64,000 nt of DNA from Escherichia coli (lineage in GTDB: Bacteria > Pseudomonadota > Gammaproteobacteria > Enterobacterales > Enterobacteriaceae), in NCBI RefSeq assembly GCF_003334815.1, contig NZ_QOWO01000012.1; one strand, given 5' to 3'. Shown here one piece after another: positions 2,952-62,961 of this stretch. The notes below the pieces were generated by a model. The model was given only the letters and a program-made list of their open reading frames with translations, made no database searches and was not told where the DNA came from. The position numbers were made by a program, and so were the translations under genes. Numbering within the stretch: the stretch's first letter is position 1; each line of letters begins with the position of its first letter.

Positions 2952-3191
2952 TGTAAAGCATCCACAATAGAAGAAGGATGCCGCAGGTTTCATCAATATT
3001 ACGCGATGATGAGAACCAGATGCGACGTTGGCCGGCAGGTCTTCGGGCTTGGAGGGGTATCTAAGATACTAAGAGATGATGACTTCCCACCGAATGGCAG
3101 TGTCCGCATAACGCAATCATCGCACCTTTCCTTACCGCTGCGCGTCAGCTCCAGATTCGCACTGGATTCCCTATTAACTCACAGGACCGGC
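2952..3191 (-). ncRNA. Adenosylcobalamin riboswitch (btuB 5' leader)
   Basis: About 240-nt leader upstream of btuB on the minus strand matching the recalled btuB leader (GCCGGTCCTGTGAGTTAATAGGGAATCCAGTGCGAATCTGGAGCTGACGCG...); element continues into the first btuB codons. Confidence 0.85.
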
Positions 3192-3319
3192 AAGTGGATG
3201 CTACAGGTTGTAACAAGTTACTGTCCAGACGTAGCTCACAAATAGGAATTCATCAAGATCTGGACATCTGATGAGCAATCCCTACAATCGCCGCGTACTT
3301 TAATTTTTCAGGATACATC

Positions 3320-4420: not shown

Positions 4421-4459
4421 AACCCATGCCGGATGCGCCAGCATCCGGCATAATACCGA

Positions 4460-8195: not shown

Positions 8196-8304
8196 GAAAC
8201 GGAGCGGCACCTCTTTTAACCCTTGAAGTCACTGCCCGTTTCGAGAGTTTCTCAACTCGAATAACTAAAGCCAACGTGAACTTTTGCGGATCTCCAGGAT
8301 CCGC
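8196..8304 (+). ncRNA. oxyS: OxyS small regulatory RNA
   Basis: Sequence GAAACGGAGCGGCACCTCTTTTAACCCTTGAAGTCACTGCCCGTTTCGAGAGTTTCTCAACTCGAATAACTAAAGCCAACGTGAACTTTTGCGGATCTCCAGGATCCGC matches recalled OxyS; divergent from oxyR; ends in a hairpin plus T8. Confidence 0.9.
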
Positions 8305-8312
8305 TTTTTTTT
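8286..8312 (+). terminator. Intrinsic terminator of oxyS
   Basis: Stem GCGGATC/GATCCGC followed by TTTTTTTT. Confidence 0.8.
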
Positions 8313-28535: not shown

Positions 28536-28543
28536 CCTACTCC

Positions 28544-28569
28544 AAACTCCCGGCTTGTCCGGGAGTTTG
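28544..28569 (+). terminator. Putative terminator hairpin after gldA
   Basis: Stem CAAACTCCCGG / CCGGGAGTTTG with a 6-nt loop, 8 nt past the gldA stop; no strong T-run, so may be a stabiliser rather than a terminator. Confidence 0.5.
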
Positions 28570-28580
28570 AACGCAAAATT

Positions 28581-28679
28581 GCCTGATGCGCTACGCTTAT
28601 CAGGCCTACGCAATCTCTGCAATATATTGAATTTGCGTGCTTTTGTAGGCCGGATAAGGCGTTCACTCCGCATCCGGCA
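28581..28679. repeat. BIME (inverted REP pair)
   Basis: GCCTGATGCGCTACGCTTATCAGGCCTAC ... GTAGGCCGGATAAGGCGTTCACTCCGCATCCGGCA; near-identical to the copy after metJ. Confidence 0.85.
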
Positions 28680-28809
28680 CTCTGTGCCAGTAATCTGAAA
28701 CTCCCACGTTGTTCAGGAATTTTTTATCCGCTTCTGGACATTTTCTCTACAGAACAATCGTTAGCCCGGAAGGTCGAATCTGTGACTCTTATTTTCACGG
28801 ACGAACCAG

Positions 28810-33932: not shown

Positions 33933-34199
33933 GAAAAGCCGAAGGGCGTCAACCGAAAAATGACCAATGATGGTGAGGAAAAATCAGGGAAGATGAAAAA
34001 ACTTCAGGATGGTAAGAAAAAGAAAATCCGGTATGCAAAGCAAACCGGACTGCAAATATAAACTAACCATGTACTTATTGCTTCTTGCCGGATTCGTCGT
34101 AAACGCTTAATCCGGCCTAATCCTATGATAATTCAATATATTTCATTAGAAACCATAAACCCGAAAACATGAGTACCGGGCATTATTAAATTTCTGAAA

Positions 34200-56643: not shown

Positions 56644-57633
56644 TCAGCGTTTGCTGATCTGATCGAACGTACCGCCGTTAGCAAAATGCTCTTTTTGCGC
56701 TTTCGTCCAGCCGCCGAACTCTTCATCAATGGTGAATAACTTCAGCTTTGGAAACGCATTTTCGTACTTTTTCGCCACCTCAGCGTCGCGCGGACGGTAG
56801 TAGTTTTTCGCGGCAATTTCCTGACCTTCTGGCGAGTAGAGATATTTCAGGTAGGCTTCCGCCACCTCTTTAGTACCTTTTTTCTCGACCACTTTATCGA
56901 CCACCGACACGGTTGGCTCTGCGAGGATAGACTCACTCGGCGTGACGATTTCGAATTTATCTTTCCCCAGTTCATTCGCTGCCAGCAGAGCTTCGTTTTC
57001 CCAGGCAATCAGTACATCGCCAATTCCGCGCTCGACAAAAGTGTTAGTGGAGCCACGCGCGCCAGAATCCAGAACTTCGACGTTTTTATACAGTGCCCGA
57101 ACAAAATCCTGTGCTTTTGCCTGATCGTTGTTGTTGTGATGCAGCGCGTAGCCCCAGGCTGCCAGGTAGTTCCAGCGCGCGCCACCAGAGCTTTTCGGAT
57201 TAGGCGTGATCACCGAAACACCCGGTTTAATCAGATCGTTCCAGTCATGGATCTGCTTCGGATTTCCCTTACGTACCAGGAAAACAATGGTGGAAGTGTA
57301 CGGTGCGGAGTTATCCGGCAGACGTTTGATCCACTCTTTATCAATCCGCCCGCGTTCCGCAATTGCGTCCACGTCATAGGCCAGAGCCAGCGTGACAACA
57401 TCAGCTTCAATACCGTTGATTACCGACGTCGCTTGTTTACCTGAGCCACCGTGTGACTGACGAATCACCACGTTATCACCAGTTTGCTGTTTCCAGTGGG
57501 CGCTGAATGCCTTGTTGTACTGTTCGTACAATTCGCGCGTTGGATCATATGAAACGTTAAGAAGCTGAATATCCTTTGCCATAACGCTGGTTGCCGCCAG
57601 CAAAAATGTTAACCCTACGCCCCACTTGTTCAT
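56644..57633 (-). CDS. sbp: Periplasmic sulfate-binding protein
   Basis: 329-aa ORF with signal peptide [19 protein letters not shown]; sulfate/thiosulfate ABC substrate-binding family. Confidence 0.95.
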
Positions 57634-57798
57634 CGCCCGACTCTCTTATGTTGTGTTGTGATGAGCAAAGCGTGCCAGAAGGTTAACCAAACATTAAAGA
57701 ATAAAAAAAGATTGGCTATAACTTGCGGGTATATGTTGAGGGATTAAAAAGGCGGAAGAAATCCGCCTCATATTGCTGACAAAGTGCGCTTTGTCCAT

Positions 57799-57897
57799 GC
57801 CGGATGCGGCGCGAACGCCTTATCCGGCCTACAAAAGTTTGCAAATTCAATAAATTGCAGAATTCATGTAGGCCTGATAAGCGAAGCGCATCAGGCA
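57799..57897. repeat. BIME (inverted REP pair)
   Basis: GCCGGATGCGGCGCGAACGCCTTATCCGGCCTACA ... GTAGGCCTGATAAGCGAAGCGCATCAGGCA. Confidence 0.85.
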
Positions 57898-57952: not shown

Positions 57953-58915
57953 TTAATACAGTTTTTTCGCGCAGTCCAGCCAGTCACCTTTGAACGGACG
58001 CTTCATGTTTTCGATAGCGTCGATGATGTCGTGGTGAACCAGCTGTTCGTTCTGGATACCTACACAACGACCGCCGTAACCTGCCAGCAGCAGATCGATA
58101 GCGTAAGCGCCCATACGGGAAGCCAGAATACGGTCGTAAGGCACCGGAGAACCACCGCGCTGGATGTGGCCCAGCACAGTTGCGCGGGTTTCACGACCGG
58201 TTTCTTTCTCGATGAAATGCGCCAGTTCGTCAACATCACACATATGTTCGGTAATCGCCACGATCGCGTGTTTTTTACCTTTCGCGATACCCGCTTTGAT
58301 TTCGTTTACCAGGTCTTCACGGCTGAATTCAACTTCCGGAACCACAACGAATTCACAGCCACCGGCAATGGCCGCAGCCAACGTCAGATCTCCACAATAA
58401 CGGCCCATCACTTCCACCACGGAAATACGCTGGTGAGAAGAAGAGGTGTCACGCAGACGGTCGATCGCTTCTACAACGGTGCTCAGCGCAGTGAAGAAAC
58501 CGATAGTGTAGTCAGTGCCTTTGATGTCGTTGTCGATAGTGCCCGGCAGACCGATGCACGGGAAGCCCATTTCGGTCAGACGCATTGCACCCATGTAGGA
58601 ACCGTCACCGCCGATAACCACCAGCGCGTCGATACCACGTTTTTTCAGGTTTTCGATAGCCACGGCGCGGATGTTCTCGTCGCGGAATTCCGGGAAACGC
58701 GCAGAACCGAGGAACGTACCGCCACGGTTGATCATGTCAGACACGCTGTAACGGTCTAGCTGTACCATACGGTCTTCATACAGACCCAGATAGCCGTCAT
58801 AAATACCCATTACTTCCAGACCTTCTGTCAGCGCAGAACGAACAACCCCGCGAATTGCGGCGTTCATGCCTGGCGCATCACCGCCGCTTGTCAACACACC
58901 GATTTTCTTAATCAT
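57953..58915 (-). CDS. pfkA: ATP-dependent 6-phosphofructokinase I
   Basis: ORF 57953..59011 trimmed to [23 protein letters not shown] (320 aa). Confidence 0.97.
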
Positions 58916-62865: not shown

Positions 62866-62880
62866 ACTTCGCATTTGCAG

Positions 62881-62961
62881 GCAGGATAAGGCGTTTACGC
62901 CGCATCCGGCATTTGAGCAGGATGCCTGATGCGACGCTGATAGCGTCTTATCAGGCCTACA
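62881..62961. repeat. BIME (inverted REP pair)
   Basis: GCAGGATAAGGCGTTTACGCCGCATCCGGCA ... GCCTGATGCGACGCTGATAGCGTCTTATCAGGCCTACA. Confidence 0.85.

Follow-up and report, generated by a model that had tools for sequence, protein, structure and literature searches.

REP/BIME elements have been on record since 1984 and account for ~1% of the E. coli genome, and those of the BIME-1 type reportedly also go by the names RIB or RIP elements, a usage attributed to Boccard and Prentki in 1993. In the published classification, a BIME-1 combines z1 and y in single copy with a conserved L linker that contains an IHF site, and a BIME-2 consists of z2 and y in tandem, with a copy number that varies between strains (Ton-Hoang et al., 2012, PMC3333891). 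BIMEs are substrates for cleavage and recombination by TnpA-REP (PMC3333891), and the Y REPs of BIME-2 show enriched cleavage by gyrase (PMC6379681). REPs have been described as dual elements that act both as stabilisers and as partly Rho-dependent attenuators, and expression favours the upstream gene across 146 tandem gene pairs that contain REPs (bioRxiv 10.64898/2026.03.23.713779).

The palindromes analysed here occur in the window, by which we mean the whole 64,000-nt stretch of E. coli DNA under study (contig NZ_QOWO01000012.1 of RefSeq assembly GCF_003334815.1), and are ordinary, already known REP/BIME repeats. The elements at gldA–yijF, metJ–yiiX, and pfkA–sbp show no essential difference from known BIME-1, with which they share inverted Z1 and Y REPs, GTAG/CTAC ends that face a long conserved linker, and a position at a gene 3′ end. 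Those at argE–ppc and cpxA–yiiM, and more loosely the one at eptC–yijO, resemble BIME-2/REP325-type clusters (naRNA4, RF02564) in their alternating Y and Z2-type REPs and short linkers. The elements also resemble REPIN/RAYT systems: they form inverted REP doublets, show polymorphism among strains, and are inserted in intergenic, hairpin-rich DNA. A further point of contact is IS621 (IS110 family, bridge-RNA recombinase), whose natural target ATCAGGCCTAC lies within Z1/Z2 REPs at 28599, 38437, 62950, and 57868–57878; the window holds the targets only and the element itself is absent from it, whereas in strain PM7 IS621 sits exactly at that target in the gldA–yijF Z1 REP, with the CT core duplicated.

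REP elements between argE and cpxA

The window is a K-12-like E. coli chromosome segment that runs from argE to cpxA. It is 99.97–99.98% identical to MG1655 in reverse orientation (murI/btuB to kdgT), such that, from x = 13369 onwards, position x of the window equals MG1655 position 4166467 − x, and a 1.6-kb query around the gldA–yijF site gave matches in 5,426 of 5,426 complete E. coli genomes, with 100% identity to K-12-type strains. The gene context of all sites was taken from the MG1655 gene table. Searching the window for the 14-nt REP core CTTATCMGGCCTAC with up to two mismatches returned 15 matches, compared to 0.41 expected from shuffles, and 14 of the 15 fall inside the six sites; a repeat finder grouped the sites into families of 35–39-nt units and inverted pairs. 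Because the MG1655 RefSeq feature table returned no repeat_region entries, we typed the REPs by sequence, using the three published E. coli sequences Y, Z1, and Z2 quoted in Durrant et al. (2024; PMC11208160). The Z1 REPs agreed with the published Z1 at 30/30 (gldA), 30/30 (metJ), and 28/30 (pfkA–sbp) positions, the Y REPs with the published Y at 31–34 of 35 positions across sites (33–34 of 35 at the BIME-1 sites), and the Z2 REP at cpxA–yiiM with the published Z2 at 34/37. Three REPs, two at argE–ppc and one at eptC–yijO, are divergent or hybrid and give no pure Z2 fit. REPs are defined as imperfect palindromes of 30–40 nt that have a conserved GTAG/CTAC tetranucleotide at one end; all 14 REPs fold as hairpins, and all end in CCTAC except for one that ends in CCTGC; the hairpins predicted at the REP sites are strong, with z from −4.4 to −5.0.

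The initial annotation had reported inverted REP palindromes at six intergenic sites, most of them between convergent or same-direction genes, and on these points it was accurate. The repeat families and inverted pairs recover all six, the match to published Y, Z1, and Z2 supports their identification as REP/BIME, and REPs in opposite orientations are found at each. All six sites are intergenic with the stop codon of a gene upstream. Five lie between same-direction genes (argE–ppc, 12897–13121; eptC–yijO, 17955–18038; gldA–yijF, 28580–28679; metJ–yiiX, 38418–38516; and, on the minus strand, pfkA–sbp, 57798–57897), one lies between convergent genes (cpxA–yiiM, 62876–62961), and none lies between divergent genes. 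The count of six was too low, as degenerate single Y-type REPs also occur at 34086–34121 (plus strand, in the metL–metF spacer; 30/35 to Y) and at 50756–50791 (minus strand; 27/35 to Y, with a repeat-family match of 71%). The placement of the copy at 57799–57897 after sbp was wrong: sbp is on the minus strand (56644–57633), and thus the element follows pfkA (minus strand, stop at 57953) and lies upstream of sbp, whose start is 165 nt further downstream.

From their sequences, the sites at argE–ppc, eptC–yijO, and cpxA–yiiM are best classed as BIME-2-like Y/Z2 pairs, clean at cpxA–yiiM and with divergent or hybrid Z2-like REPs at the other two. The argE–ppc site contains four REPs (Y, 12897–12932, minus; Z2-like, 12960–12998, plus; Y, 13020–13055, minus; Z2-like, 13083–13121, plus) in two 123-bp tandem units (TRF period of 123, 1.8 copies, 98% matches); it is like the BIME-2/REP325 type in being a strain-variable tandem and differs from it in its Z2-like REPs, which match Z2 at 28–29 of 37 positions and carry TCGGAT arms. 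At eptC–yijO, the left REP (17955–17993, plus) is a Z2/Y hybrid, of Z2 type at its centre and of Y type in its arms (33/37 to Z2 and 32/35 to Y), and a 10-nt linker separates it from a Y REP at 18003–18038 (minus). The cpxA–yiiM site pairs a Y REP (62876–62911, minus; 33/35) with the Z2 REP (62923–62961, plus) across an 11-nt linker, folds with z of −4.5 and −5.0 on the two strands, and matches the Rfam family RF02564 (naRNA4) over its full length, at 62880–62957 (plus), with 78.6 bits compared to a gathering score of 59.5. Unlike the clusters, the sites at eptC–yijO and cpxA–yiiM are single units here.

Three REPs start very close to a stop codon, 3 nt past that of argE (12894), 11 nt past that of cpxA (62865), and 3 nt past that of glpK (50753, the degenerate REP). 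These distances fall within the range of <16 nt for which work cited in PMC12306157 reports reduced translation, and by analogy the REPs within 15 nt of the stop may lower translation of argE, cpxA, and glpK. Downstream of the eptC REP pair, folding predicts a hairpin followed by a T-run at about 18075–18103, and a similar hairpin follows the pfkA copy (see below). A scanner for consensus promoters and terminators returned nothing at the five sites scanned (all but cpxA–yiiM), these fold-visible hairpin-plus-T-runs included, and the pfkA and eptC hairpins thus stand as fold-based readings of putative terminators.

The BIME-1 elements at gldA, metJ, and pfkA

Alignment showed that the elements at gldA–yijF, metJ–yiiX, and pfkA–sbp each consist of a Z1 REP, an L linker of ~35 nt, and an inverted Y REP, with one copy per locus, which by sequence makes them canonical BIME-1. 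An nhmmer profile built from these three copies and searched against five MG1655 regions that total 250 kb found five further full-length BIME-1 copies with scores of at least 91 bits, all other matches scoring at most 59 bits. The K-12 comparison set thus comprised eight copies from 314 kb. Three copies in the 64-kb window compared to five in the 250 kb sampled do not amount to a meaningful enrichment. The linker core GCAATWTATTGAATTTGC is identical in five of the eight K-12 copies and has one mismatch in two more. The IHF consensus is WATCAANNNNTTR, with nine specified positions; the strand opposite the linker core reads ATTCAATAWATTG, which we take to be an IHF-like site, as it agrees with eight of these nine positions. 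Conserved flank motifs, found in most copies from K-12 as well as from other Escherichia species, extend BIME-1 beyond 100 bp. The motif next to the Y REP measures ~30 nt (about TGAACAAAGCGCACTTTGTCAGCAATCTGA) and contains a small hairpin; that next to Z1 is shorter (about GATGAACAAACGCAAAAT). With the Rfam family RF02751 (ES036, CssrF), whose gathering threshold is 37.6 bits, the L linkers score 39.6 bits at metJ and 48.2 bits at pfkA, both above the threshold, and 34.8 bits at gldA, below it. The matches at metJ and pfkA–sbp are antisense in orientation to the upstream gene.

When one genome per bacterial species was scanned with an exact pattern, the Z1–L–Y architecture was restricted to Escherichia species and Pseudocitrobacter, barring four contigs from unrelated taxa (three of only 261–720 bp) that look like E. 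coli contamination. Because the pattern fixed 11 nt of the linker exactly, we left the cross-species copies out of the assessment of IHF-site conservation. Among the 28 cross-species copies with callable neighbours that we used to check orientation, 19 lie between convergent genes, whereas all three copies of the window lie between same-direction genes. An orientation bias was considered and rejected: 4/4 same-direction K-12 copies are Z1-first in the transcript, but the cross-species tandem cases split 4 to 4. The 62 cross-species stretches included a single ortholog of the gldA, metJ, or pfkA loci (L054, gldA–yijF of Escherichia sp. E1V33), and we therefore sought an outgroup by way of Salmonella MetJ.

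The gldA–yijF element spans 28571–28698 (plus strand) with its flanks and is made up of a left flank motif (28571–28579), the Z1 REP (28580–28611), an L linker (about 28610–28644) with the IHF-like sequence ATTCAATATATTG on the minus strand (8/9 specified positions of WATCAANNNNTTR), an inverted Y REP (28644–28679; 33/35), and a right flank motif shortened by an 11-nt deletion (28680–28698). As RNA, the whole element is predicted to fold with −41 kcal/mol (z = −4.6). Past the gldA stop (28535) but ahead of the BIME-1, and outside the repeat, lies a further hairpin, AAACTCCCGG-cttgt-CCGGGAGTTT (28543–28569, plus; −19.2 kcal/mol, z = −4.3), which alignment shows to be kept in strains with an alternative spacer.

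The pfkA–sbp element, delimited by inverted-repeat families and alignment, occupies 57770–57897 on the minus strand and comprises the Z1 REP (57897–57866), an L linker (about 57867–57833), a Y REP (57833–57798 in the minus-strand reading; 33/35), and a right flank motif with its small hairpin (57797–57770); it is found in essentially all E. coli genomes sampled. Downstream of it on the pfkA strand, a terminator-like hairpin, GAGGCGGA-tttct-TCCGCCTT, is followed by TTTAAT (57744–57769, minus), with a predicted fold of −21.2 kcal/mol over 63 nt (z = −4.3). The position of this hairpin with its T-run places the BIME-1 in the pfkA 3′UTR, before the putative pfkA terminator and the sbp promoter region.

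The metJ–yiiX copy differs from the other BIME-1 copies in lacking the left flank motif and in sitting in a terminator loop. Alignment with four BIME-less genomes defines an inserted segment of ~128 nt (38413–38540, plus) that consists of a 5-nt left stub from 38413, the Z1 REP (38418–38449), the L linker (about 38448–38481), an inverted Y REP (38481–38516; 34/35), and a right flank motif with its small hairpin (38517–38540). The insert separates the two arms of the ancestral metJ intrinsic terminator, AAAGAGCGGCGCGGAGT on the left (38396–38412, plus) and, on the right, the second arm with its U-tract, CCGCTTTTT (38546–38554, plus), which lies 18 nt upstream of the yiiX ATG (38573); the distance of 57 bp from the end of the Y REP (38516) to the yiiX start given in the initial annotation is right. 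In genomes that have no insert (O157:H7, an ExPEC strain, and a divergent lineage among them) the spacer is shorter by 124 bp, and the resulting 59 bp consist of a clean intrinsic terminator, GAAAAGAGCGGC..GCCGCUUUUUUC (−20.9 kcal/mol, z = −3.9; with its end 19 nt from the yiiX start codon), and the yiiX ribosome-binding region. In the minimum-free-energy fold of the window's metJ–yiiX spacer (−66.5 kcal/mol, z = −4.4), the outer terminator stem is retained and closes a multi-branch loop of four hairpins (Z1, L, Y, and flank). Salmonella metJ is followed by a compact terminator with no BIME, and on this comparison, which concerns terminator architecture alone as yiiX is not adjacent there, the empty metJ–yiiX state looks ancestral.

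Comparison with REP-less strains, proposed in the initial annotation as a check, revealed differences at several of the sites. Of the 5,426 complete E. coli genomes, 2,812 (52%) carry the left junction of the metJ–yiiX insert and 4,782 (88%) carry the gldA–yijF BIME-1 junction, with a different GC-rich palindromic repeat of ~180 bp in place of window positions 28571–28693 in genomes without the gldA copy. The argE–ppc unit number ranges from one to three (three in MG1655, two in the window, and one fitting a span of 678 bp seen elsewhere in E. coli, where spans of 628 and 738 bp also occur), the eptC–yijO REP pair is missing in a minority of genomes (−66 bp), and the cpxA–yiiM spacer is 65 or 150 bp longer in a few. 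Such variability in presence and copy number is what the literature reports for BIMEs (PMC3333891; bioRxiv 10.64898/2026.03.23.713779). [quoted passage not shown] No RAYT (TnpA-REP) gene was found in the window, and none is annotated in the corresponding MG1655 region; the RAYT of the E. coli genome lies elsewhere.

Alternative readings of the repeats and of their resemblance

It is very probable that the palindromes are canonical E. coli REPs organised as BIMEs, with BIME-1 at gldA–yijF, metJ–yiiX, and pfkA–sbp and BIME-2-like elements at argE–ppc, eptC–yijO, and cpxA–yiiM, with functions according to family, with the gldA and metJ copies alike only as family members, and with the metJ copy inserted in a terminator loop. 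Positions at gene 3′ ends and GC-rich hairpin folds would also suit unrelated Rho-independent terminators or chance inverted repeats, but 14 copies share a 14-nt core of which 0.41 matches are expected, REP-containing queries match a median of 20–39 places per genome in every one of the 5,426 E. coli genomes, no T-runs follow the REP hairpins, and separate terminator-like hairpins adjoin the REPs; refuted by the core-motif count and by the match to published Y, Z1, and Z2, this reading retains virtually no probability. The elements could instead be primarily small-RNA genes (of the naRNA4/CssrE or ES036/CssrF type) that act in trans, for example in nucleoid organisation with HU, as Rfam scores above gathering at cpxA–yiiM (naRNA4) and in the linkers at metJ and pfkA (ES036) and the nucleoid role proposed for naRNA4 (PMC4550694) might suggest. 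However, these two families effectively model the BIME-2 unit and the BIME-1 linker, so any copy would match; moreover, the gldA copy scores below the ES036 gathering score (34.8 compared to 37.6), no promoter-like sites flanked the elements at the five of six sites scanned, and the trans-acting role of naRNA4 is itself disputed (bioRxiv 10.64898/2026.03.23.713779). We consider a primary function as small-RNA genes very unlikely and retain the reading of the elements as canonical BIMEs.

Within that reading, the origin of the gldA copy and the transcriptional setting of the metJ copy each have an alternative. The gldA and metJ copies had been called nearly identical over ~100 bp and ascribed to recent copying. 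Recent duplication or gene conversion of one another would be compatible with copies that lie 9.8 kb apart in the same orientation, both with a 30/30 Z1 and a near-perfect Y REP, but their identity is 87% (13 differences in 100 columns), the exact median of the 21 pairs formed by the seven Z1-type K-12 copies to which the pairwise test was applied (range of 80–94%). The two are thus no more alike than any two family members, which refutes recent copying, and the pfkA–sbp copy is just as similar, at 88% to gldA (107 nt and 88% complementary in the repeat finder) and 86% to metJ. Among the copies sampled, the gldA copy is closest to that at rhlE–ybiA (94%) and also closer to those at uvrB–ybhK (90%) and yajD–tsx (90%), all three >3 Mb away, and four other copies are as close to the metJ copy. 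The differences are located in the flanks of the linker, the REPs follow the consensus of the family, the 11-nt right-flank deletion of the gldA copy is absent from the metJ copy, and the population frequencies differ (88% compared to 52%). Duplication of one copy from the other is therefore extremely improbable and, judged by alignment, the resemblance is that of two BIME-1 members without a special relationship. For yiiX, the initial annotation had left open whether the repeat is transcribed in the yiiX leader or sits ahead of a promoter; the former is supported by the terminator-loop insertion and the lack of a sigma-70-like site, and the latter is disfavoured. A BIME-1 upstream of an independent yiiX promoter would be a DNA-level feature only, outside the yiiX transcript. 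The about 56–57 nt up to the ATG could in principle accommodate a minimal promoter if its leader were very short, and our simple scan, which detected no site between 38517 and 38572, covered sigma-70-like sites only. In this interval, however, ~29 nt come from the insert and ~27 nt are ancestral and represent the terminator right arm, U-tract, and ribosome-binding region. The terminator fills the 59-bp spacer of BIME-less strains, which rules out a promoter at this position for the ancestral yiiX, and yiiX is a member of the MetJ iModulon and as such shows co-expression with the MetJ regulon (PMC11701608). Insertion in the terminator loop, the ~27 nt that remain, the absence of a sigma-70-like site, and the co-expression together favour a location in RNA; an independent promoter is unlikely, and the BIME-1 is most likely transcribed within the metJ(–yiiX) RNA.

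Probable roles and significance

By analogy with characterised REPs, the elements would be transcribed in the 3′UTR or intercistronic RNA of the upstream gene, where their hairpins may block 3′-to-5′ exonucleolytic decay of the upstream mRNA and may cause partial, partly Rho-dependent attenuation of read-through to the downstream gene. The role in mRNA 3′-end stabilisation suggested in the initial annotation agrees with published reports of mRNA stabilisation and partial termination by such elements in 3′UTRs (bioRxiv 10.64898/2026.03.23.713779; PMC3333891). At the DNA level, the L linkers of the BIME-1 copies would be expected to bind IHF, and the Y REPs of the BIME-2-like sites may be preferred gyrase sites.

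The general idea that expression is tuned by REP positions that differ from strain to strain has already been published. We found no published account of the metJ–yiiX terminator-loop case, and the sole mildly new item is this polymorphic BIME-1 insertion inside the metJ terminator loop. The BIME-1 probably entered the loop in one E. coli sublineage and thereby would have become part of the metJ(–yiiX) transcript. Otherwise, the analysis matters little beyond correct annotation; its useful outcomes are corrections to the subfamily assignment, to the gene context of the pfkA–sbp copy, and to the claim of recent copying, which is rejected. As a tentative proposal, which we regard as possible but rather doubtful, the metJ–yiiX BIME-1, lineage-specific and present in about half of genomes, could be a natural switch of metJ-to-yiiX read-through that couples yiiX to, or uncouples it from, the MetJ regulon depending on the strain. 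The filled and empty metJ–yiiX alleles constitute a natural experiment on the effect of a BIME-1 in a terminator loop on termination, mRNA stability, and downstream expression.

Variation at the gldA-yijF BIME-1

The BIME-1 in the gldA-yijF spacer is interrupted in strain PM7 (NZ_CP073996.1, locus L071) by a 1,277-bp copy of IS621, an element of the IS110 family with a bridge-RNA recombinase. The insertion lies within the Z1 REP, between the positions corresponding to window 28606 and 28607, exactly at the natural IS621 target ATCAGGCCTAC, and the CT core flanks both ends of the element. Copies of this target occur at four places in the window: 28599, 38437, 62950 and 57868-57878.

At this same position, the BIME-1 is replaced by another repeat, ~180 bp long, in ~12% of E. 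coli genomes (window 28571-28693 compared with positions 771-955 of the stretch from strain FDAARGOS_1291, L070). This alternative repeat is palindromic and GC-rich (it includes CCCTCACCCTAACCCTCTCCCCAAAGGGGAGAGGGG) and appears to resemble the 'boxC' repeats. MG1655 has a relative of it near glnP/glnH, with 85% identity over 73 nt (L067:47158-47230).

Other repeats and structured elements in the window

The argE-ppc spacer contains two 123-bp BIME-2 units in the window compared to three in MG1655, corresponding to the loss of exactly one unit (window 12897-13121 versus MG1655 4153099-4153695); the remainder of the 64-kb window differs from MG1655 by only ~15 substitutions. The argE-ppc spans of other E. 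coli genomes are compatible with one unit or with other arrangements.

Lesser REP-like features were also observed. A short perfect palindrome, GCCGGATGCGccAGCATCCGGC, occupies 4428-4449 in the trmA-yijD spacer, where the two genes converge; its arms are REP-like and the rest of a REP is missing, so that it could be either what is left of a REP or just a terminator hairpin acting in both directions. Degenerate single Y-type REPs are found in the metL-metF spacer (34086-34121) and immediately 3' of glpK (50756-50791), the latter followed by a strong hairpin (GTGCGGGGgcaaCCCCGCAC). Rfam matches to the btuB cobalamin riboswitch (3017-3206), the OxyS sRNA (8196-8305), the L31 (rpmE) leader (39461-39513) and the ClpQY (hslVU) promoter element (44125-44182) are as expected for this chromosomal region.

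In Salmonella enterica, metJ is followed on its 3' side by a 456-bp AT-rich spacer (L086:1519-1975), and the next gene is not yiiX but one for an arylsulfotransferase; Escherichia and Salmonella thus do not have the metJ-yiiX adjacency in common.

BIME-1 in other genomes

The one-genome-per-species scan also placed exact E. coli-type BIME-1 sequences on four contigs from other taxa (loci L010, L030, L044 and L064): contigs of 261-720 bp from assemblies assigned to Desulfosporosinus, Methylobacterium and Alkalicoccobacillus, and a 3.9 kb contig of a Collinsella MAG; contamination from E. coli is the most likely source of all of these.

BIME-1 has been described as single-copy at each locus (PMC3333891), whereas the lineage of Escherichia sp. 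MOD1-EC7003 carries BIME-1 units in tandem arrays (L052:231-1071; also L048, L049 and L050), with a 115-bp Y-L-Z1 unit present in 7.3 copies with 95% matches. The left and right flank motifs of BIME-1 share the direct repeat GAACAAAsGC, and the array junctions contain a short sequence that looks like a fusion of these two motifs.
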